DNA from: Microgenomates group bacterium ADurb.Bin219
GTDB lineage: Bacteria; Patescibacteriota; Microgenomatia; UM-FILTER-40-11
DNA length: 62,155 nucleotides
Direction of reading: 5' to 3'
Assembly (NCBI GenBank): GCA_002069945.1
Contig: MWCH01000005.1
Location: forward strand, 1-62,155
Shown: piece after piece, positions 2,213-62,035 of the stretch
Numbering within the stretch: position 1 is the stretch's first letter
Layout: each line of letters starts with the position of its first letter
Position numbers and translations under genes: made by a program
The notes under the pieces: model-generated
Told to the model about the DNA's origin: nothing
What the model saw: the letters and a program-made list of their open reading frames with translations, nothing else
Database searches by the model: none

Positions 2213-3643
2213 AAGGAAAAGTATTTTTGTTTTTTATATTGGCTTTAGGATTTTGTTCGCGATTGTATAAGATAAATATTCCTCTGGCCGATCACCATTC
2301 CTGGCGGCAAGCAGATACGGCGGCAGTAGCGAGAAATTATATTAAAGAAGGCTGGAATTTCTTTTTTCCGAAAGCGTGGATGAAATTGTTTTTTTATACG
2401 TGAATGATCCCTGTGTAATAATTGGTTCCAAGGAGTCTATAAATTAATCGGTGTTCGGGAAAAATGGGCGAGACTGGTTTCAATTATCTTTTCCCTGGGT
2501 TCAACCGTTTTTCTTTATTTTATTGCCAAAAATTTCTTTGGAGAAAAAACCGGTTTATTGTCAGCCTTTTTTTTCGCGATTTTGCCTTACAATATTTTTT
2601 ATTCGCGGGTTGTCCTTCCCGAGCCGATGATAATTTTCCTAACCTTGGGGATGTTTTATTATTTGATTAAGTGGCTTGATACCGATTCTTCAGTCTACTA
2701 TTTACCGTTTATTGTTTTCTCGTTGTTGTCGTTTTCCCAGAAAAGTTTTCCGCTGTTTTTTCTTTTGCCGCTGGCCTATCTTTTTTGGCAAAAGTTTGGC
2801 TTTAATTTGATTAAACAAAAGAAAATCTTTTTTTGGCTAATTGCTTCCTTTTTACCATTGATTTTGTGGCGTTGGTGGATAAGCCGCTTTCCCGAAGGTA
2901 TTCCGGCAAATTTGTGGCTGTTTAATCAAGGGAATATCCGTTTCAAGGGCGCTTTTTTTTGGTGGTTGTTTGCGGAAAGGATAGGGAAGTTGATTTTGGG
3001 TTATTGGGGTTTGCCTCTTTTGCTTTTGGGGGTTGTTTTAAAACCAAAAAAAGAGGGTTGGTTTTTCCATTTTTGGCTTTTAAGTCTTTTAATCTATTTG
3101 GCCGTTTTTGCCGCCGGAAATGTGACTCATGATTATTATCAAATTCCTTTAATCCCGATCTTTTGTATTTTTTTGGCGAAAGGCGCCAATTTTTTGCTTT
3201 TTGAAGTTAACAATAATTTTAATCGGTTTCTTTGCTCTTTGTGCTTTGTGCTTTGTACTGGTTTTATGGTGGCTTTTTCCTGGTATCAGGTTCGCGACTT
3301 TTATAATATTCAAAGCGGGGTCGATCTGGCGGGCCGCTGGATAGACGAGAATACCGACCAAAAGGCGCTAATTGTTACCGGAGACAGCAATGATGCGACC
3401 CTTTTATATAATTGCAACCGTTGGGGCTGGACCGCCGGCTATGCTTCTTCCTATCCCAACGAACCCCATGCCATTGAAGAATTAAGATCCAAAGGCGCCT
3501 CTTTTTATGTATCAACCAAATTTGATAAAAACTCCGATTTCGGAAAATATATGTTCAAAAATTATCAGCTTTTAAAGGAAACCGATCAGTTTGTTGCTTT
3601 TTCTTTAATAAACAATTACCAATTACCAATCACCAATCGCTAA
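2209..3643 (+). pseudogene. ArnT/PMT_2-like (GT39/GT83-type) membrane glycosyltransferase with the reading frame broken around 2365-2410
   Basis: The N-terminal 64 aa (SRLYKINIPLADHHSWRQADTAAVARNYIKEGWN) is the typical family start and ends at TGA 2401..2403. The family continues in another frame from 2408 (LCNNWFQGVYKLIGVREKWARLVSIIFSLGSTVFLYFIAKNFFGEKTGLLSAFFFAILPYN...) and is intact to 3643. T6 and T7 runs flank the break. Confidence 0.55.
3231..3258. repeat. Heptamer patch (TTTGCTC TTTGTGC TTTGTGC TTTGTAC)
   Basis: Read directly. Translated as LCSLCFVLC. Confidence 0.7.
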
Positions 3644-3647
3644 TCTC
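3613..3647. repeat. Heptamer patch (CAATTAC CAATTAC CAATCAC CAATCGC TAATCTC)
   Basis: Read directly. Gives the NNYQLPITNR tail and spans stop codon 3641..3643. Confidence 0.85.
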
Positions 3648-3651
3648 TATT

Positions 3652-4863
3652 ATGAAAATTTTAATGTTGACTCCTTATCTTCCTTTTCCGCCTTCTTCCG
3701 GCGGCCAGGTTCGCTCATATAATTTAATAAAGAATTTGGCCCAAAAGCACGAAATAACTTTGTTTTCTTTGATCAAAAAAGAAGAAGAGAAAAAATACGT
3801 TCTTGAATTGGAAAAATATTGTAAAAAGGTAAAAGTTTTTAAAAGATCTCCCCGGCCATGGACACTAAGAAATATTCTTAAAACCGGTTTCAGCTCTTAC
3901 CCGTTTTTAGTGATTAGAAATTCTTCGGACGAAGAGAAAGAGGCTTTAATTAACGAACTTAACGGTAATCTGTTCGACTTGATTCATGCGGAAACTTTTT
4001 ATGTTATGCCTCATTTGCCGGAAACAAAAACACCGATATTGTTAGTCGATCAAACGATTGAGTTTCAGGTATATCAGCATTTTGTGGAAAAAAGCAAGCT
4101 TTTTTTCCTTAAGCCTTTGTTATACCTCGATGTTCTTAAAATTAGATATTGGGAGTTAAAATTTTGGAAAAAAGCGAATAAAGTAGTTGCAGTATCGGAA
4201 GCCGATAAACAAAAAATGCTTTATTTGGAAAAAAATCTAGATGTCGGGGTTGTTCCCAACGGTGCCGGAGAAGATTTGATGAAGATTGGTAATTTCTCCA
4301 AAAACATTAAAGAGCCGGTAATTCTTTTTCAGGCAAATTTTTCCTGGTTGCAGAATATTGAAGCGGCTGCCAATCTCGCCAAGAAGGTTTTTCCCCTAAT
4401 CAAGAAAACGATTCCTCAAGCTAAATGCCGGATAGTTGGCCAGGGAGCGAGAGAAAAATTAAAAAAACTTTCCTCAGAAGACGTTCAGATAGTTGACCTG
4501 GAAACCGACGATACGGAAGGGGTTATGAAAGCTTATCGCCAGGCGAGTGTCTTTGTTGCTCCACTAGAGGGTCCGGGCGGCACCAGATTAAAGATTTTAG
4601 GAGCTATGGCTGCGAGTGTGCCGGTGATTACCACGACGGTTGGGATTGAAGGAATTGACGCCCATAATAATAAGGAAGTTCTAATCGCTGACTCCTGGAG
4701 TCTGATGGCAAAAAATTCCATTAAGCTGATTAGAAATCCGGATTTTTATCGGAGAATGACCAGTTCGGCCAGAAAATTAATTGAGGACAAGTATAGTTAT
4801 CAGAAGATTTCTTTAATTTTGGATAAATTTTATCGGGAGGTGGCCGGTGGAAGAAAAAATTGA
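3652..4863 (+). CDS. Glycosyltransferase family 4 (GT-B, Glycos_transf_1-type)
   Basis: MKILMLTPYLPFPPSSGGQVRSYNL N-terminus. C-terminal VFVAPLEGPGGTRLKILGAMAASVPVITT sugar-donor region. Confidence 0.8.
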   Translation: MKILMLTPYLPFPPSSGGQVRSYNLIKNLAQKHEITLFSLIKKEEEKKYVLELEKYCKKVKVFKRSPRPWTLRNILKTGFSSYPFLVIRNSSDEEKEALINELNGNLFDLIHAETFYVMPHLPETKTPILLVDQTIEFQVYQHFVEKSKLFFLKPLLYLDVLKIRYWELKFWKKANKVVAVSEADKQKMLYLEKNLDVGVVPNGAGEDLMKIGNFSKNIKEPVILFQANFSWLQNIEAAANLAKKVFPLIKKTIPQAKCRIVGQGAREKLKKLSSEDVQIVDLETDDTEGVMKAYRQASVFVAPLEGPGGTRLKILGAMAASVPVITTTVGIEGIDAHNNKEVLIADSWSLMAKNSIKLIRNPDFYRRMTSSARKLIEDKYSYQKISLILDKFYREVAGGRKN

Positions 4864-5836
4864 CCTTTCCATAATTATCCTTTCCTACAATACCAGAGAG
4901 CTTTTGAAAAAGTGCCTTGACTCGGTGATTAGTGATTTGCAATTAGCGGTTAGAGAGAAGGGAAGAGGTTTTGATACGCCACCAATCACCAATCACCAGC
5001 CACCAATCACCGAGATTATCGTGGTGGACAATGGATCAACTGACGGTTCGGTGGAAGAAATTAAAAACGAAAAATTAAAAATTAAAAATAAAGATTTAAG
5101 ATTAATCGTTATTGAAAACAAAGAAAATGTGGGCTTTGCGAGAGGAAATAATGTCGGCCTTAAAATCGCCAATGGCCGCTATATTTTGTTTTTAAATTCG
5201 GATACGGAGATTTTCCCGGGTTCTTTAAAAGAGGCGATTGATTTTATGGATTCGGATAAAACTATTGGCGCGATGACTCCCAAAACCGTCCTTTATTCCG
5301 GGAAAATAGATCCCGATTGTCATCGCGGCTTTCCGACTCCATGGGCGTCTTTGACTTACTTTCTCGGATTGGAGAAACTTTTTCCCAAGAGCCGCCTTTT
5401 CGGCCAATACCATAAATTTTATCAAGATTTGGACAAACCCCACGAAATTGATGCCGGATTCGGAACGTTTTTGCTGATAAGAAAAGAGGTATATAAAGCA
5501 ATCGGCGGCTGGGACGAGAGTTATTTTTTTTACGGTGAGGATTTGGATTATTTTTATCGCGTTAAACAAGCCGGCTGGAAAGTGATGTTTTATCCGAAGA
5601 TTCTTTTAAAGCACCATAAAGGAGGAAGTTCTGGACTAAGAAAAGAATCAAAAAAAATTACTTTGGCCAGCCGGGAAACCAGGATTAAAACCGCCCGCGC
5701 CTCAATTCGGGCGATGGAAATTTTTTACAAGAAGTTTTATAAAGACAAATATCCCAATTGGCTGACTTTTCTCGTATTGTCAGCTATCAAAGTAAAAGGC
5801 GTATTTAGATTATTGAAACACTATATTAATAAATAA
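4847..5836 (+). CDS. Glycosyltransferase family 2 carrying an in-frame repeat insertion
   Basis: LSIIILSYNT, VVDNGSTDGS, NVGFARGNNVG, FLNSDTE, FFYGEDLDYFYRVKQAGW. GTG start overlaps the upstream gene by 17 nt. Confidence 0.85.
   Translation: MEEKIDLSIIILSYNTRELLKKCLDSVISDLQLAVREKGRGFDTPPITNHQPPITEIIVVDNGSTDGSVEEIKNEKLKIKNKDLRLIVIENKENVGFARGNNVGLKIANGRYILFLNSDTEIFPGSLKEAIDFMDSDKTIGAMTPKTVLYSGKIDPDCHRGFPTPWASLTYFLGLEKLFPKSRLFGQYHKFYQDLDKPHEIDAGFGTFLLIRKEVYKAIGGWDESYFFYGEDLDYFYRVKQAGWKVMFYPKILLKHHKGGSSGLRKESKKITLASRETRIKTARASIRAMEIFYKKFYKDKYPNWLTFLVLSAIKVKGVFRLLKHYINK
4924..5014. repeat. 13-unit phase-coherent heptamer patch with inverted arms (GGTGATTAGTGATT ... AATCACCAATCACC)
   Basis: Units: GGTGATT AGTGATT TGCAATT AGCGGTT AGAGAGA AGGGAAG AGGTTTT GATACGC CACCAAT CACCAAT CACCAGC CACCAAT CACCGAG. 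Shares an 11-mer and a 24-mer with 6653..6771. Confidence 0.85.
5048..5133. repeat. 86-nt block identical to window positions 1..86
   Basis: Base-by-base comparison: first mismatch at 87/5134. Flanking coding sequence of the two GT2 paralogs is strongly diverged. Confidence 0.9.
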
Positions 5837-5903
5837 ATTGGAAGTTCGTTACAAGCTATCCCGATCTTAAACGAGATTGCAATATTACGAAATAAAAGAA
5901 AAA

Positions 5904-7208
5904 ATGAAAATCGGAATTGATTGCCGGATGATTGGATTGGAAAATGCCGGGATTGGACGTTATGTCCAGAATCTTGTAAATGAGTTATCGAAGATTGACA
6001 AGAATAACGTTTATGTTTTATTTGTTCGGAAAAATTTCTTAACGAAAATAAGTTCCAATTCCCAATCTCCCAGCCTGTGCCAAAGCTTCGGCGGGCAGGC
6101 AGTATCAAATATCAAATATGTAGCGGCAGAAGCAAGGCATTACTCCTTAAAAGAACAGGTTTTAATGCCCTATTTAATTCGGAAAGAGAAAATTGATTTA
6201 ATGCATTTTCCTCATTTTAACGTGCCGGTTTTTTATTTTGGCGATTATGTTTTGACCATTCACGATTTAATCAAACACTTTTCCCGCGGCCGGTCGACGA
6301 CGACCAAAAACTACTTGTTTTATTGGCTGAAGTATTTGGGTTATTTAATTGTTTTTCGACTGGCGGTTAAAAGAGCCAAAAATATTCTGGTTCCGTCAAA
6401 AACCGTCTCGCTTCAGTTGAGAAAAGCATATGGAATACCGGAAAGTAAAGTGGTAGTGACATATGAGGGAGCGGAAAGCAAGCAAAAAGCTACATCCTTA
6501 AAGGATTCCCCGAAGGGAGCAAATGAAAAGTTAAAAGTTGAAGAAGTATTGGAGAAATATAAAATCAAAAAACCATATTTATTATATGTCGGCAGCGTCT
6601 ATCCCCATAAAAATATCCCCAATCTCATAAGGGCAGTTACTATTCTTAACGAGTCAGCGACTAGCGATCGGCGGTTAGCGGTTAGTGGTCAATCGTTTGC
6701 CTCGTCGGAAGCGTTGAGTCAAGACGGTCCAACCACCAACCACCAACCACCAATCACCAATCACCAGCCATCGGTGAACCTTGTCATTGTTTGCGCCAGG
6801 AATATTTTTTGGGAAAGATTACAAAAAGAAGTTAAAAACCAAAAGGCAGAAAATTTTGTTAAGATGGTGGGTTTTGTTCCGGATGAGGAATTGAAATTAT
6901 TATATAGGGAGGCGGAAGTTTTTGTTTTTCCTTCTTTATCGGAGGGCTTTGGTTTGCCTGGCTTGGAGGCGATGGCAGCCGGGGTTCCGGTTTTGGCTTC
7001 GGACATTCCGGTTTTCAGAGAAATTTATCGGGAAGCAGCCAGTTATTTTAACCCCATCGATTCTCAAGAAATGGCAGAAAAAATTAAAGATCTGCTTATT
7101 GATAAGAAAAAACAAAATACTCTAAGAAAAGAAGGCTTTAAGATTTGCGATAAATACTCCTGGAAAAAGATGGCTGAGCAGACACTGAAAATATATCAAA
7201 GTATATAA
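5904..7208 (+). CDS. Glycosyltransferase family 4 with two in-frame repeat insertions
   Basis: KIGIDCRMIGLENAGIGRYVQNL start and FVFPSLSEGFGLPGLEAMAAGVPVLASD motif. ATG 5904 preferred over the track start 5877, which adds only MQYYEIKEK. Confidence 0.85.
   Translation: MKIGIDCRMIGLENAGIGRYVQNLVNELSKIDKNNVYVLFVRKNFLTKISSNSQSPSLCQSFGGQAVSNIKYVAAEARHYSLKEQVLMPYLIRKEKIDLMHFPHFNVPVFYFGDYVLTIHDLIKHFSRGRSTTTKNYLFYWLKYLGYLIVFRLAVKRAKNILVPSKTVSLQLRKAYGIPESKVVVTYEGAESKQKATSLKDSPKGANEKLKVEEVLEKYKIKKPYLLYVGSVYPHKNIPNLIRAVTILNESATSDRRLAVSGQSFASSEALSQDGPTTNHQPPITNHQPSVNLVIVCARNIFWERLQKEVKNQKAENFVKMVGFVPDEELKLLYREAEVFVFPSLSEGFGLPGLEAMAAGVPVLASDIPVFREIYREAASYFNPIDSQEMAEKIKDLLIDKKKQNTLRKEGFKICDKYSWKKMAEQTLKIYQSI
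6055..6117. repeat. 9-unit heptamer patch (63 nt, 21 codons) with central imperfect palindrome around AAGCTT
   Basis: Units: CCAATTC CCAATCT CCCAGCC TGTGCCA AAGCTTC GGCGGGC AGGCAGT ATCAAAT ATCAAAT. Translated as SNSQSPSLCQSFGGQAVSNIK. Confidence 0.75.
6653..6771. repeat. 17-unit phase-coherent heptamer patch (GTxAGCG type drifting to CAACCAC/CAATCAC)
   Basis: Single 7-nt register over 119 nt, read directly. 6747..6770 is identical to 4979..5002 and 6675..6685 is identical to 4943..4953. Confidence 0.85.
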
Positions 7209-7251
7209 AAAACCGAAAAAACTTCGTTCGTAATATTTTTATTCAAAATTT

Positions 7252-7280
7252 TTGACAATTAAGTCCTGTTGTGCTATTTA
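7252..7280 (+). promoter_or_regulatory. Putative sigma-70-type promoter (TTGACA-17 nt-TGcTATTTA)
   Basis: TTGACA at 7252..7257, 17-nt spacer, TG-extended TATTTA at 7275..7280. Lies about 50 nt upstream of the first zinc-ribbon ORF. Confidence 0.45.
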
Positions 7281-7332
7281 TGAGGTATTCTGTTGGCAAG
7301 AGAGGGTCAAATAAAAAGAAAGGAGAGAAGGA

Positions 7333-7569
7333 ATGGACGAGTGTAAGTGTCATTTGACTGGGTTGGCTAAGGACTGGGTTTTTTGCCCCGAATGTGGAGA
7401 AAGGCTGAAGGAAGAAAAGCCTGCTTGTCGGCCGGTAACCGTTGAGGGCAAGATCAGTCGGTATTGCCCCGTTTGCCGAAAGAATCGCTCGGTTATCCAC
7501 TATGCAGACGGGCAACCTTTACACAATCCGAACTTCTGTCCGGAATGTGGATCGACTTTGTTGAAATAA
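7333..7569 (+). CDS. Small multi-zinc-ribbon protein (78 aa)
   Basis: Three CxxC pairs (CPECG, CPVC, CPECG). AAAGGAGAG Shine-Dalgarno sequence 6 nt upstream. Confidence 0.6.
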   Translation: MDECKCHLTGLAKDWVFCPECGERLKEEKPACRPVTVEGKISRYCPVCRKNRSVIHYADGQPLHNPNFCPECGSTLLK

Positions 7570-7941: not shown

Positions 7942-8901
7942 ATGAATATTTTCCGTTGTGATCTTTGTCCGAGAAATTGCAGAATTAACCGGAAAAAAGG
8001 AATCGGTTTTTGTAAAGCTGACGATAAAATTAAGATTTCCTGGTTTGGACATCATTTTGGCGAGGAACCTCCTATCTCCGGTCCATCTCGTCTTCGGCGA
8101 AGTCGAGGCGGTTCGGGAACAATTTTTTTCAGCAATTGCAATTTAAAGTGTGTTTTTTGTCAAAATTGGCAGATCTCACAGCCCTCCTTCGCCCTCCGAT
8201 TCGGAGGGCTTCGGAAGGGTAAAGAACTAAATCAAGATAAAAGTTATGATGTGAATGGGATAGTAGAGATGATGCTGAAACTTCAAGAGGAAGGCAGCCT
8301 GAATATTAATTTAGTCTCGCCCACGGTTTGGTCATATTGGCTAGAAAAGGTAATTATTACGGCCAAAAGGAAAGGATTGAAGATCCCCATTGTTTGGAAT
8401 ACAAACGGTTATGAGAAAACGAAAACTTTAAAAGAATTTGAAGGCTTGGTGGATATTTATTTACCCGATTATAAATACGATAACGAAAAACTGGCCATCA
8501 AATATTCTTCGGCTCCCGGATATCCCGAAGTTGCCCGAAAAGCAATTTTGGAAATGCAAAGGCAGGTTGGCGATTTACAAATTGACCAGAAAGGCAAGGC
8601 GATCAGGGGATTGATCGTCCGGCATTTGATTTTACCCGGGCAAATAGAAAATACCAAAAATTGCCTCCGTTTCGTTAAAACAATTTCCGATCGGGTTCAC
8701 CTTTCCCTAATGACACAATATAATCCTCTTTATCGGGCAAGAGAGTTTGCCGAAATTAACCGGCCGATTGGCAAACAAGAGTTTGAGGCGGCCAATAAAC
8801 TTGTTGAAGGATTAGGTATAAAATACGGTTGGGTTCAAGAATTTGGGGGAGCAGTCAAATGCTTTAGCCCGGATTTTGAAAAAGAAAATCCGTTCGGTTA
8901 A
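7942..8901 (+). CDS. Radical SAM protein, PflX-like (pyruvate formate-lyase activase-related)
   Basis: FFSNCNLKCVFCQNW (CxxxCxxC) motif. N-terminal CDLCPRNCRINRKKGIGFC. No SPASM-like C-terminal Cys cluster. Confidence 0.75.
   Translation: MNIFRCDLCPRNCRINRKKGIGFCKADDKIKISWFGHHFGEEPPISGPSRLRRSRGGSGTIFFSNCNLKCVFCQNWQISQPSFALRFGGLRKGKELNQDKSYDVNGIVEMMLKLQEEGSLNINLVSPTVWSYWLEKVIITAKRKGLKIPIVWNTNGYEKTKTLKEFEGLVDIYLPDYKYDNEKLAIKYSSAPGYPEVARKAILEMQRQVGDLQIDQKGKAIRGLIVRHLILPGQIENTKNCLRFVKTISDRVHLSLMTQYNPLYRAREFAEINRPIGKQEFEAANKLVEGLGIKYGWVQEFGGAVKCFSPDFEKENPFG
8087..8107. repeat. 21-nt near-perfect palindrome inside the radical SAM ORF
   Basis: CTCGTCTTCGGCGAAGTCGAG has one off-centre mismatched pair (T8091/T8103) against its reverse complement. 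Encodes part of PSRLRRSRG. Confidence 0.7.
8181..8219. repeat. Nested palindrome inside the radical SAM ORF
   Basis: GCCCTCC occurs twice (8181, 8191). An 8-bp stem GCCCTCCG/CGGAGGGC (8191..8198 / 8202..8209) has a 3-nt loop. Outer partner is GGAAGGG. Encodes PSFALRFGGLRKG. Confidence 0.75.
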
Positions 8902-8935: not shown

Positions 8936-10030
8936 ATGAAAGTGGCTTTGGTTTACGACCGGGTTAACAAATGGGGAGGAGCAGAGCGATTATTGCTGGC
9001 CTTGCACCAAATTTGGCCCGAAGCTCCGCTTTATACCTCTGTTTATGATTCGGAAAGGGCTCCCTGGGCTAAGGTTTTTGAGGTGAGGACCTCTTTTTTA
9101 CAAAGAATTCCCTTGGCCAAAGAAAAACATGAATTCTTTGCCCCGTTAATGCCCTTGGCTTTTGAGTCTTTTAATTTTGACGAATTTGATTTGGTAATTT
9201 CCATAACCAGCGAGGCGGCCAAGGGGATAATTACTAGACCGAAAACAAAGCATCTTTGTTATTGCTTGACGCCGACCCGGTATTTATGGAGCGGGTATAA
9301 AGAATATTTTAGAACCAGCACTCAGCGTATAGCGTCTAGCTCGTTAGTCAAATATTTAAGAAAATGGGATTTAGTTGCGGCCCAAAGGCCGGATGCTTAT
9401 TTTGCCATTTCCCAGACCGTTCAAAAAAGGATCAAAAAATACTATGGCAGGGAAAGTGATGTGATTTATCCACCAGTCGATTTGGATAAATTTAGAACAA
9501 ATATCAAATATCAAATATCAAATATCAAATATTATTTAGTAGTATCGAGGTTGGTGCCGTATAAAAAGGCAGACCTGGTGGTGAAAGTTTTTAATAAGTT
9601 GGGTTGGAATCTAAAGATAATTGGCGTAGGGAGCGAATTAAGGAAGCTAAAAAGAATGGCCAATAGCAATATTGATTTTTTGGGCCAGTTGACAGACGAG
9701 CAGCTGATTAGTTACTATCAAAATTGTCGGGCGGTTGTCTTTGCCCAGGAAGAAGATTTTGGTTTGGTCCCGCTTGAGGCTCAGGCTTGCGGAAAACCGG
9801 TAATCGCTTTTAGGGCCGGAGGAGCAGCGGAAACAATTAAAGATCGGATAACCGGAGTTTTTTTTGATCAACAAACTCCCGAATCGCTGATTGAAGCGGT
9901 AAAAAAAGCCGACCTGATGATTAAAAATTCAAAATTAAAACCCGAAGACTGTCGCAAACAGGCAGAAAAATTCGGGATGAAAGAATTTTTGGCAAGGTTT
10001 AAACAAATTGCCGAGGAAAATGGCAGATAA
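8936..10030 (+). CDS. Glycosyltransferase family 4
   Basis: MKVALVYDRVNKWGGAERLL start. VFAQEEDFGLVPLEAQACGKPVIAFRAGGAAETI motif. Confidence 0.8.
   Translation: MKVALVYDRVNKWGGAERLLLALHQIWPEAPLYTSVYDSERAPWAKVFEVRTSFLQRIPLAKEKHEFFAPLMPLAFESFNFDEFDLVISITSEAAKGIITRPKTKHLCYCLTPTRYLWSGYKEYFRTSTQRIASSSLVKYLRKWDLVAAQRPDAYFAISQTVQKRIKKYYGRESDVIYPPVDLDKFRTNIKYQISNIKYYLVVSRLVPYKKADLVVKVFNKLGWNLKIIGVGSELRKLKRMANSNIDFLGQLTDEQLISYYQNCRAVVFAQEEDFGLVPLEAQACGKPVIAFRAGGAAETIKDRITGVFFDQQTPESLIEAVKKADLMIKNSKLKPEDCRKQAEKFGMKEFLARFKQIAEENGR
9315..9349. repeat. Heptamer patch (CCAGCAC TCAGCGT ATAGCGT CTAGCTC GTTAGTC)
   Basis: Read directly. Same TAGCG word family as 6653..6687. Confidence 0.65.
9497..9531. repeat. 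Heptamer tandem repeat (ACAAATA + TCAAATA x4)
   Basis: Four perfect units, read directly. Translated as TNIKYQISNIKY. ATCAAAT x2 also occurs at 6104..6117. Confidence 0.9.
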
Positions 10031-13834: not shown

Positions 13835-14398
13835 GTGACGTTAGGTAAGACTTTTAAAACCGAAGGCATAATTTTAAAAAGAAGTAACTTCGGTGAGGCA
13901 GACAGGATTTTAACTGTTTTCACCAAACACTTCGGGAAAATTTCCATTTTGGCAAAAGGAATAAGAAGAACCACTTCCCGCAAAGGCGGAAATTTGGAAC
14001 TTTTCAACCAGGTTGTAATTTTTGCGGCCAAGGGAAAAAATTTGGATATTGTCACCGAAGTGGAAGTCATTAATTCGTTTAAAGACTGGCGAGTGGATTT
14101 AAAAAAGGTCGCGGCGGCGTATCAATTGTGCGAATTGGTAGATAAATTAAGTGCGGAAGGAGTGGAAAACAATGAGGTTTACGATCTGCTCGTCAATAGT
14201 TTTATAAATTTATCACCAATCACTAATTACCAATCACTAATCACTAACTTTGAAGTCTCCCTTCTTCAAAGTTTGGGTTTCTGGCCGAAAGGAAGACCGG
14301 TCGGCAATACCAACCTTGATCTTTACATTGAAGATTTGATCAACCGCAAACTTAAAGCCAAAAATTTTTTTAACCAAGTTTCCGTTTCTCAGAGTTAG
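13835..14398 (+). CDS. recO: DNA repair protein RecO (short form)
   Basis: GIILKRSNFGEADRILTVFTKHFGKISILAKGIRR OB-fold N-terminus typical of RecO. GTG start. Confidence 0.7.
   Translation: MTLGKTFKTEGIILKRSNFGEADRILTVFTKHFGKISILAKGIRRTTSRKGGNLELFNQVVIFAAKGKNLDIVTEVEVINSFKDWRVDLKKVAAAYQLCELVDKLSAEGVENNEVYDLLVNSFINLSPITNYQSLITNFEVSLLQSLGFWPKGRPVGNTNLDLYIEDLINRKLKAKNFFNQVSVSQS
14214..14248. repeat. Heptamer patch (CACCAAT CACTAAT TACCAAT CACTAAT CACTAAC) inside recO
   Basis: Read directly. Translated as SPITNYQSLITN. Confidence 0.85.
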
Positions 14399-44805: not shown

Positions 44806-44879
44806 GCTCGCGTAGCTCAGTTGGTTAGAGCGTTCGGTTCACATCCGAAAGGTCCCCGGTTCGATTCCAGGCGCGAGCA
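44806..44879 (+). tRNA. tRNA-Val (anticodon CAC)
   Basis: Hand-folded. Acceptor GCTCGCG/CGCGAGC, D-arm GCTC/GAGC, anticodon arm TTCGG-TTCACAT-CCGAA, T-arm CCCGG-TTCGATT-CCAGG (one C-A mismatch), discriminator A. No encoded CCA. Confidence 0.85.
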
Positions 44880-61115: not shown

Positions 61116-61187
61116 AGCCGGAGGCGGGATTTGAACCCGCGACTTGCTGTTTACGAAACAGCTACTCTACCACTGAGTTACCCCGGC
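61116..61187 (-). tRNA. tRNA-Thr (anticodon CGT)
   Basis: Hand-folded on the minus strand. Acceptor GCCGGGG/CTCCGGC (one G-T pair), anticodon arm GCTGT-TTCGTAA-ACAGC, T-arm GCGGG-TTCAAAT-CCCGC, discriminator T. Confidence 0.85.
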
Positions 61188-61208
61188 AAAATTGTTTTAA
61201 AATCTCGC

Positions 61209-61283
61209 TGGAGCGGCGGAAGGGAATTGGACCCTCGACCTTCTCCTTGGGAAGGAGACATTCTACCACTGAACTACCGCCGC
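61209..61283 (-). tRNA. tRNA-Gly (anticodon CCC), CCA encoded
   Basis: Acceptor GCGGCGG/CCGCCGC, anticodon arm TCTCC-TTCCCAA-GGAGA, T-arm GAGGG-TCCAATT-CCCTT, discriminator T then CCA. The T-loop has C at position 55. Confidence 0.8.
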
Positions 61284-61961: not shown

Positions 61962-62035
61962 CGGGCTCGACCGGATTTGAACCGGCGATCTTCTCCTCGA
62001 CAGGGAGATGTGTTAGGCCGCTACACCACGAGCCC
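61962..62035 (-). tRNA. tRNA-Asp (anticodon GTC)
   Basis: Acceptor GGGCTCG/CGAGCCC, D-arm GTGT/ACAC, anticodon arm TCTCC-CTGTCGA-GGAGA, T-arm GCCGG-TTCAAAT-CCGGT, discriminator G. Confidence 0.85.

Follow-up and report, generated by a model that had tools for sequence, protein, structure and literature searches.

Protein genes can carry palindromic DNA in frame: the Rickettsia palindromic elements (RPE), reportedly described by Ogata et al. in 2000, comprise about 100-130 nt of palindromic sequence, are presumably translated, occupy tolerant surface regions and are regarded as mobile. The RPE concept recurs in excerpts of two later papers (PMC1779305, PMC10969869). Repeats of another kind, the 7-nt simple sequence repeats (SSRs), are over-represented in bacteria (Mrazek et al. 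2007, as cited in passages of PMC4679880 and PMC4692102), and their known families include the cyanobacterial STRR, GGGAATC in Xanthomonas and GGGGAYT in Nostoc (PMC4692102), and TAACTGA in Beggiatoaceae, cyanobacteria and Bacteroidetes (PMC4679880). Here we analyse a 62,155-nt stretch of DNA from Microgenomates group bacterium ADurb.Bin219 (contig MWCH01000005.1, positions 1 to 62,155, hereafter the window), in which two glycosyltransferase genes, one of family GT4 and one of family GT2, each contain a patch in which two heptanucleotide microsatellites of opposite orientation are read in frame as protein, with the layout (GYGRYTR)n - spacer - (YARYCRC)n. We consider it moderately probable that the paired arrays of such a patch grow at the site itself and are tolerated by a permissive loop, and that the patch is not a jumping gene.

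Two translated hairpins in glycosyltransferase genes

The host genes and the parts of the two patches are:

5904..7208, plus strand: GT4-family glycosyltransferase, host gene; 434 aa from the ATG at 5904; Pfam Glycos_transf_1 (3.6e-33) and Glyco_transf_4
6654..6691, plus strand: GT-rich left arm of the GT4 patch; TCA followed by GCGACTA GCGATCG GCGGTTA GCGGTTA GTGGTCA, family GYGRYTR; encodes SATSDRRLAVSGQ
6692..6729, plus strand: spacer of the GT4 patch; 38 nt, non-repeat, with a small internal stem
6730..6771, plus strand: CA-rich right arm of the GT4 patch; CAACCAC x3, CAATCAC x2, CAGCCAT; encodes PTTNHQPPITNHQPS and includes the 24-mer at 6747-6770
4847..5836, plus strand: GT2-family glycosyltransferase, host gene; 329 aa; Pfam Glycos_transf_2 (7.3e-25)
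4921..4952, plus strand: left arm of the GT2 patch; CTCG followed by GTGATTA GTGATTT GCAATTA GCGGTTA; encodes SVISDLQLAV and carries the 11-mer
4953..4978, plus strand: spacer of the GT2 patch; 26 nt, purine-rich, unrelated to the GT4 spacer
4979..5014, plus strand: right arm of the GT2 patch; CCA CCAATCA CCAATCA CCAGCCA CCAATCA CCGAG; encodes PPITNHQPPITE and carries the 24-mer

An earlier sequence-only reading had described the GT4 patch as 17 units. Its units are not contiguous, and it comprises instead five GT-rich units (6657-6691), the spacer and six CA-rich units (6730-6771). The same hairpin layout is seen in the GT2 patch (4921-5014), whose ends, CTCGGTGATT...AATCACCGAG, form a perfect 10-nt terminal inverted repeat. 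TRF reports period-7 arrays at 4980-5011, 6671-6689 and 6729-6770. A single purine/pyrimidine pattern covers all units of the two patches, with YRRYYRY on the C/A-rich strand (CAAYCRC, TAAYCRC) and GYGRYTR on its GT-rich complement (GTGGTTG, GTGATTG, GCGGTTA, GTGATTA), and its members differ by transitions only. Read in frame, a heptamer regains phase every three units and gives a peptide with a period of 7 aa, (CCAATCA)3 encoding PITNHQ[PS]. An inverted-repeat search of the whole window missed both patches because they offer no 8-nt exact Watson-Crick seeds.

The identities between the patches are as first reported. The 24-mer CCACCAATCACCAATCACCAGCCA is identical at 4979-5002 and 6747-6770 (0 matches expected in shuffles) and the 11-mer TTAGCGGTTAG at 4943-4953 and 6675-6685; the blocks stand in the same order and frame at both loci (..LAV.. 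then PPITNHQP), at a block-to-block distance of 36 nt in GT2 and 72 nt in GT4, a difference of 36 nt. The 11-mer alone is not significant, at least two matches with at most one mismatch occurring in 28 of 100 shuffles. The two patches are further alike in having A-type units outside and G-type units inside, and in their reading phase. No direct repeats of the kind left by target duplication were seen on inspection of the patch borders in the window.

Both host genes are members of a glycosyltransferase cluster. GT4 homologues are typically 370-380 aa long versus 434 aa for the window protein, and GT2 homologues are mostly about 300-310 aa (among the best 120) versus 329 aa. Alignment with orthologues reveals three lineage-specific inserts in the window GT4 protein. 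An AlphaFold prediction covering this protein is confident overall, with pLDDT below 50 at residues 52-66, 197-202 and 256-287, matching the three inserts. The patch corresponds to residues 256-287, between helix 238-261 and strand 293-296, and is predicted to sit in a disordered and structurally dispensable surface or otherwise tolerant loop, the position that the sequence-only reading had raised for it. The insert at 6040-6120 (residues about 46-70, with pLDDT below 50 at 52-66) is of another make: SSNSQSPSLCQSFGGQAVSNIKY, a short GC-rich stem with a (TATCAAA) array.

The left arms bear the marks of being read as protein. When the consensus GYGRTTA is restored in them, in-frame stops appear at the deviant units, namely TAG at units 2 and 5 of the GT4 arm and TAG or TGA at units 2 and 3 of the GT2 arm, and the idealised peptides become SAISD(stop)RLAV.. 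and DSVISD(stop)RLAV.. respectively. Unit 1 of the GT4 arm, GCGACTA, is one transition from its idealised form with no stop involved and still fits the family; most remaining departures remove in-frame stops. Because the deviations fall mainly at would-be stops, the left arms appear to be ordinary family arrays edited where the frame required it. Recoding of the left arms from TGGTGGT by selection for hydrophilic residues was considered and dropped, GCGGTTA and GTGATTA being ordinary units in non-coding hairpins elsewhere.

The patches also fold. As the sequence-only reading had stated, 15 of 19 positions pair between the arms at 6671-6689 and 6732-6750, and a hand check found all four exceptions to be A-C. 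The uninterrupted antisense helix of 19 bp that it deduced is real but was understated in length: the minus strand of 6651-6779 forms 38 uninterrupted pairs, 15 of them G-U, joining arm 6654-6691 with arm 6730-6771 at -68 to -70 kcal/mol (z -7.7), and the plus-strand fold is weaker (-42 to -44 kcal/mol). When the 62-kb window is folded in sliding 120-nt segments, the GT4 patch deviates most (z -6.1), ahead of a runner-up at -3.2. The GT2 patch gives -36.4 kcal/mol (z -4.4) on the minus strand and -24.2 kcal/mol (z -1.8) on the plus strand. Real as it is, the antisense helix is accounted for by the composition of its arms and by variation confined to transitions. The C/A arm, being free of stops, is the one that the coding strand must carry, and its partner departs from the complement by transitions alone; each such departure gives an A-C mismatch on the sense strand but a G-U pair on the antisense strand, and the length of the G-U helix would be a side effect of this arrangement.

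A promoter/terminator scan found no minus-strand promoter-like site in 4600-7400 and no terminator at the patches, and no T-run follows the GT4 hairpin. Neither at the gathering threshold nor by E-value did Rfam assign the hairpins to a family; sub-threshold matches of the patches to plant miRNA precursors reflect a generic long hairpin. The only gathering-score Rfam matches in the window are four tRNA genes (44806-44879, 61116-61283, 61962-62035).

Some further observations concern the host genes and their surroundings. All GT4 homologues bear Patescibacteria names, the nearest named being Candidatus Shapirobacteria / Microgenomates at ~50% protein identity. Third-party annotation (TPA) records of metagenome-assembled genomes (MAGs) titled 'uncultured Gammaproteobacteria' or 'Pseudomonadales' contain GT4 proteins 37-50% identical to that of the window (e.g. 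L142, L143, L149); they rank amid Shapirobacteria, Woesebacteria and Microgenomates records, and their organism labels appear doubtful. The window starts within a second GT2 paralogue, its first ~105 nt (positions 1-105) nearly repeating 5046-5150, a stretch of the GT2 gene (through L015, an NCBI MAG contig, 74 nt align at 96%), and L015 likewise begins in the duplicated GT2 stretch, at window position 5079. With both contigs starting in this segment, the assemblies evidently break there and the insert site of the paralogue lies just off the contig. The Pfam scan covered six of about 55 open reading frames (ORFs) in the window.

Heptamer arrays in relatives, in the window and in other phyla

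Most orthologues lack the inserts in both the GT4 and the GT2 alignments. The contig L015 is 99.95% identical to the window over 10 kb and has no indels. At 87-93% nucleotide identity, L016 keeps the left arm, but its spacer is unrelated and shorter (15-18 nt) and its right arm is a perfect (AATCACC)x5; L141, the sole further L016-like strain from a metagenome scan, is 99.3% identical to L016 and has the identical patch. L017 (about 87%), whose alignment to the window is interrupted at 6651-6782, has just an array of CCAATAT type and no hairpin. Unit and length therefore turn over at one site, the window, L016 and L017 all differing, with no change between strains at 99.95% and 99.3% identity. 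The presence/absence polymorphism that the sequence-only reading had proposed to look for is accordingly not seen in these strain pairs.

The same loops are occupied by other arrays in more distant relatives. GT4 orthologues at 44-60% protein identity often have PxTNHQxPxT at the same loop, others being without any insert. In L343 this loop holds a different hairpin (GTGAACA/GTGGTCA with an A7 loop) followed by (AATCACC)x5, and in L342 a different hairpin of GGTTACC-type units; L138, L139 and L140 have hairpins with different arms at the GT2 loop. Perfect nucleotide arrays in GT4 proteins only ~47% (L343) and ~86% (L016) identical to that of the window do not represent retained ancestry in host genes so divergent, and imply that the arrays have been renewed in place.

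A scan of the window for YRRYYRY returned six arrays of at least three units (at most one mismatch per 21 nt) versus 1.25 in shuffles. They comprise the right and left arms of both patches, the left arms being on the opposite strand, and two simple arrays, listed here with an array of another unit:

3613..3647, plus strand: simple array of the GYGRYTR/YARYCRC family; CAATTAC x2, CAATCAC, CAATCGC, TAATCTC; no hairpin
14210..14251, plus strand: simple array of the GYGRYTR/YARYCRC family in the RecO gene (13835-14398); CAATCAC TAATTAC CAATCAC TAATCAC, read as ..ITNYQSLITN..; no hairpin with a partner array
9496..9534, plus strand: (CAAATAT)x5 = TNIKYQISNIKYY, an array built on a different heptamer, located in the linker between the domains of a second GT4 gene (8936-10030)

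The array at 3613-3647 supplies the last 10 codons and the stop of ORF 2558-3643 (..NYQLPITNR followed by the stop). The C/A strand is the sense strand in all four plus-strand arrays, and all four loci of the family in the window lie within ORFs on the sense strand, unlike the predominantly intergenic heptanucleotide SSRs. The CAAATAT unit recurs at 6101-6119 in the first GT4 gene. At the (CAAATAT)x5 site of the second GT4 gene the array is absent in L016 and other heptamers are present in other Patescibacteria, which shows that the heptamer process is general. Folding of the arrays at 2175, 3611, 6101, 9496 and 14212 yielded no hairpin. Exact runs in the window number 11 at period 7 versus 2-5 at other periods; ten of the 11 lie in the first 10 kb, which contains the glycosyltransferase and envelope cluster, and the other 52 kb has one.

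Small palindromes of a non-heptamer kind also occur as in-frame GC-rich insertions relative to L016, at 6493-6519 in the GT4 gene (TCCTTAAAGGA and TTCCCCGAAGGGA) and at 8182-8218 in a radical-SAM gene (CCCTCCGATTCGGAGGG). Both are hairpins in coding sequence.

As a comparison set we used 80 loci (1.35 Mb) around GT4 orthologues of other Patescibacteria, all chosen around glycosyltransferase genes. Period 7 is strongly over-represented among the exact arrays of this set, with 91 versus 35 at period 6, 10 at period 8 and none at period 9. The majority of the period-7 arrays (64/91) lie inside long ORFs, with peptides such as SNIKYQISNI, FRIQNSEFRIQN and FQISNFKFQIS, and many are at the GT4 interdomain linker, the site of (CAAATAT)x5 in the window. 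Translated heptamer microsatellites are a general feature of the Patescibacteria genomes examined. Strict CACCARY arrays are absent from the 80 loci, where arrays of the same purine/pyrimidine pattern with other bases do occur, and within Patescibacteria only the window's lineage and its closer relatives have the CACCARY vocabulary. Another Patescibacteria gene (L210, 8513-8642) has inverted arrays AGGAATT ... ATTCCTR ~100 nt apart in one ORF; these being of another unit, intragenic heptamer hairpins are not limited to the CACCARY family.

Outside Patescibacteria the same vocabulary is widespread. The 24-mer is present in 14 unrelated MAGs (Brevundimonas, Gemmatimonadaceae, Planctomycetota, Verrucomicrobiae, Flavobacteriales and others), where ~0.004 matches are expected by chance, and several matches have an inverted GT-rich array just upstream. 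The sequence-only reading had itself named, as the outcome that would speak against a dispersed element, a tandem array common everywhere without conserved flanks, and this is what the search returned. Arrays of (GCGGTTA)n and TGGTGRY/RYCACCA hairpins together occupy more than 200 loci, mostly intergenic, in many phyla. The pattern GGTGRYTGGTGRYTGGTG-N8-38-CACCARYCACCARYCACC, that is TGGTGRY-loop-RYCACCA hairpins, matches at least 120 loci. Many of the host genomes hold several copies, up to a dozen per genome among the matches listed, and hosts among these matches include Gemmatimonadota, Saprospiraceae, Heliobacteria, Acidobacteriota, Chloroflexota, Planctomycetota and Caulobacteraceae, with cultured Brevundimonas among them. 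Viral contigs gave only one match.

Dozens of genomes contain (GCGGTTA)n arrays. The 15-mer GCGGTTAGCGGTTAG has ~1,100 chance matches expected in the collection, so that its raw count is uninformative; at least 39 of the matches listed, however, are arrays of at least 28 nt, some much longer, and many are paired with an inverted (TAACCGC)n array. In one Planctomycetaceae array GCGGTTA, GTGGTTA and GTGATTA occur mixed, as they do in the left arms of the window. Very long, perfect (GCGGTTA)n arrays were seen in Methylotuvimicrobium buryatense 5G (120 nt; L237 2566-2685), in a Myxococcota MAG (~230 nt including masked N; L261 6313-6544) and in a SAR324 MAG (78 nt at a contig end; L250 1-78). The units of the (TGGTGGC)n arrays (e.g. 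L060, L118) each contain what we take to be the Escherichia coli Chi octamer GCTGGTGG, and GGTGAT matches the extended Shine-Dalgarno sequence, complementary to the 3' end of 16S rRNA; neither is more than a resemblance, and nothing here relies on either.

The 120 listed hairpins of other phyla were compared in their sequence and setting. A crude heuristic based on ORFs puts 116 of them at ORF boundaries, with all gene orientations represented; an initial classification of 69 as genic was rejected because stop-to-stop ORFs had been extended into the CA arm, which has no stops. The TGGTG/CACCA core is invariant while the heptamers vary by transitions, the RY spacer positions being the variable ones. 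At these two variable positions the arms are Watson-Crick complementary in 65% of cases versus 52% expected, and the remainder splits 117:116 between top- and bottom-strand wobble, with no per-element bias (p about 0.15). Copies within two multi-copy genomes have unrelated flanks, loops of 4-6 nt and arms that are often unequal in length; no target duplications were evident at 20 copies in these two genomes.

The shared blocks of the window can be judged against this family. Taking the four common unit variants at their frequencies in the 120 listed hairpins, and right arms of four and six units, the calculated chance that two such arms share a three-unit block is ~0.16, so that the 24-mer and 11-mer indicate a common repeat family, not copies of one element. 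The sequence-only reading had held that independent slippage would not produce the shared blocks. This stands insofar as the two patches are not unrelated local slippage products; it fails insofar as the blocks are family vocabulary, to be expected in about 16% of cases by chance.

Origin of the patches

The account that we favour starts from the observed anatomy, family membership, predicted loop location, turnover in relatives, stability between near-identical strains and stop-avoiding edits. Arrays would start and change length by replication slippage, and the inverted partner would arise by fold-back (template-switch) copying of an existing array. The structure may then persist as nearly neutral: its CA-rich strand is stop-free and encodes a linker rich in Pro, Thr, Asn and Gln (PITNHQP), and the GT-rich arm would stay in the gene only once units placing TAG or TGA in frame have changed. 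No dedicated function and no transposition are invoked. Several points weigh against it. Slippage and fold-back copying have been inferred, not observed, and generic slippage leaves the same vocabulary at four loci here and in many phyla unexplained. The unit order and phase common to the two hairpins of the window could mean that one was copied from the other, and local copying between the GT2 and GT4 loci, 1.7 kb apart, is conceivable. A helix of 38 pairs with 15 G-U and no transversion is cleaner than simple neutral decay, and some pairing constraint may exist. The clustering of ten of 11 exact arrays in the first 10 kb could reflect selection and not tolerance.

The favoured account also does not explain why one transition-variant vocabulary with an invariant TGGTG/CACCA core recurs as hairpins in many phyla. 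A different proposal is that GYGRYTR/YARYCRC hairpins are a distinct cross-phylum repeat system spread by a dedicated mechanism recognising TGGTG/CACCA (cf. REPs and RAYT), which would have colonised coding loops of envelope-glycan genes in Patescibacteria and perhaps made them switchable. We regard this as unlikely; were a dedicated mechanism to underlie the family, it would constitute a new class of bacterial repeat element.

Rather unlikely, too, is a miniature mobile palindromic element like RPE, or like MITEs (transposable elements of miniature inverted-repeat type) and REPINs, inserted in frame, with the GT2 and GT4 patches as two insertions or as copies by ectopic conversion. Such an element would account for a family at four loci in 62 kb where 1.25 arrays are expected, for the 24-mer, 11-mer, unit order and reading phase common to both hairpins, for several copies per genome in other phyla, for the lack of patches in most orthologues and for the terminal inverted repeat of the GT2 patch. 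It is disfavoured by the absence of a conserved non-repeat core (the GT2, GT4 and L016 spacers being unrelated), by unrelated flanks, by arms that are often unequal and only 65% complementary at variable positions, by a site that stays constant while its sequence changes among orthologues, by shared blocks to be expected from vocabulary alone, and by the single match in viral contigs. The target duplications that the sequence-only reading had suggested as a check were seen neither at the patch borders nor at the 20 copies in two genomes. Its description of the patches as copies of one modular element is thus retained for the repeat family, the shared units, the layout and the phase, and given up for a discrete mobile element.

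Tetranucleotide and homopolymer repeats switch surface-glycan genes in Haemophilus, Neisseria and Campylobacter, and gain or loss of a 7-nt unit would similarly frameshift a glycosyltransferase and turn it on or off. We give this contingency-locus interpretation just as small a chance. The concentration of exact period-7 arrays in the glycosyltransferase cluster agrees with it, as do several perfect arrays ((CAAATAT)x5 at 9498, (AATCACC)x5 in L016 and L343) and the recurrence of heptamer arrays in glycosyltransferase genes of many Patescibacteria, although those loci were all chosen around such genes. However, unit number is unchanged between assemblies in the two strain pairs (identity 99.95% and 99.3%), the arrays are short, with 2-6 units, and arrays are also found in RecO and at the 3' end of a gene.

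It is very improbable that selection acts on the protein, with the peptide rich in Pro, Thr, Asn, His and Gln (PITNHQP) serving as a useful flexible linker and the nucleotide repeats incidental. Similar peptides at the same loop in GT4 orthologues only 44-60% identical, and the predicted disorder of that loop, are compatible with this, but the same nucleotide family is almost wholly intergenic in other phyla, which argues for a DNA-level entity, perfect arrays stand in GT4 genes too divergent for retained ancestry, and most orthologues function without the insert. Least probable of all is a functional antisense RNA, or other minus-strand RNA hairpin, selected for G-U-tolerant pairing: the GT4 patch is the strongest fold of the window, on the minus strand and with a stem that no transversion interrupts, and the excess of minus over plus folding recurs in the GT2 patch, L016, L139, L140, L342 and L343, but this asymmetry follows from a stop-free C/A arm on the coding strand and transition variants, L138 folds equally on both strands, the wobbles of other phyla show no strand bias, and promoter-like site, T-run and above-threshold Rfam match are all lacking at the patches.

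Comparison with described repeat systems

Literature searches returned no description of the GYGRYTR/YARYCRC family or of heptamer hairpins translated inside conserved enzymes, and nothing specific on heptamers in Patescibacteria or the candidate phyla radiation. The heptanucleotide SSRs have much in common with the family in the window: head-to-tail 7-nt units with fixed and variable positions, many loci per genome, a patchy distribution over phyla, and large differences in length and sequence at the same site between relatives. Occasional inverted stem-loop pairs (PMC4692102) and occasional read-through in the stop-free orientation (PMC4679880) are found among them, as in the window. They differ in unit family; the hairpin is the rule here and the exception there, and, where the described families keep overwhelmingly to intergenic DNA, the arrays in the lineage of the window are read in frame as part of conserved enzymes.

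The RPE resemble the patches in being in-frame palindromic inserts that leave the ORF intact, occupy a tolerant region and are absent from orthologues. Unlike RPE, which follow a family consensus along their whole length, the patches share heptamer vocabulary only and have unrelated spacers, and in the lineage of the window it is the site that endures and the sequence that changes. REP/REPIN elements and MITEs (PMC3116915, PMC10969869) are likewise short, dispersed, many-copy and hairpin-forming, and the present family is, as they are, mostly intergenic in other phyla; unlike them, it has no target-site duplication that we could see and no fixed length, and its arms are tandem arrays of variable unit number. 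The tandem repeats of Borgs (PMC9879509) also lie in ORFs, are translated and add disordered segments, but are read as in-frame amino-acid repeats, whereas a 7-nt unit restores the frame only at every third unit. The coding palindromes of Nematomorpha mitochondria (PMC6649704) are inverted repeats in ORFs that are translated and tolerated; they are long and perfect, and not microsatellites.

The shared 24-mer and the 38-bp antisense helix are thus explicable without a mobile element or an antisense RNA. One heptamer vocabulary, varying by transitions only, occurs as hairpins at hundreds of loci in distant phyla. The patches indicate that non-triplet microsatellites, even as hairpins, can live in conserved enzymes as translated loops predicted to be disordered, which would give Patescibacteria a route to new protein segments and set a trap for annotation and assembly, contigs here breaking at repeats. 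Heptamer SSRs of bacteria, in-frame palindromes of Rickettsia and disordered regions of Borgs were already known; this unit family and its translation within enzymes appear to be new.

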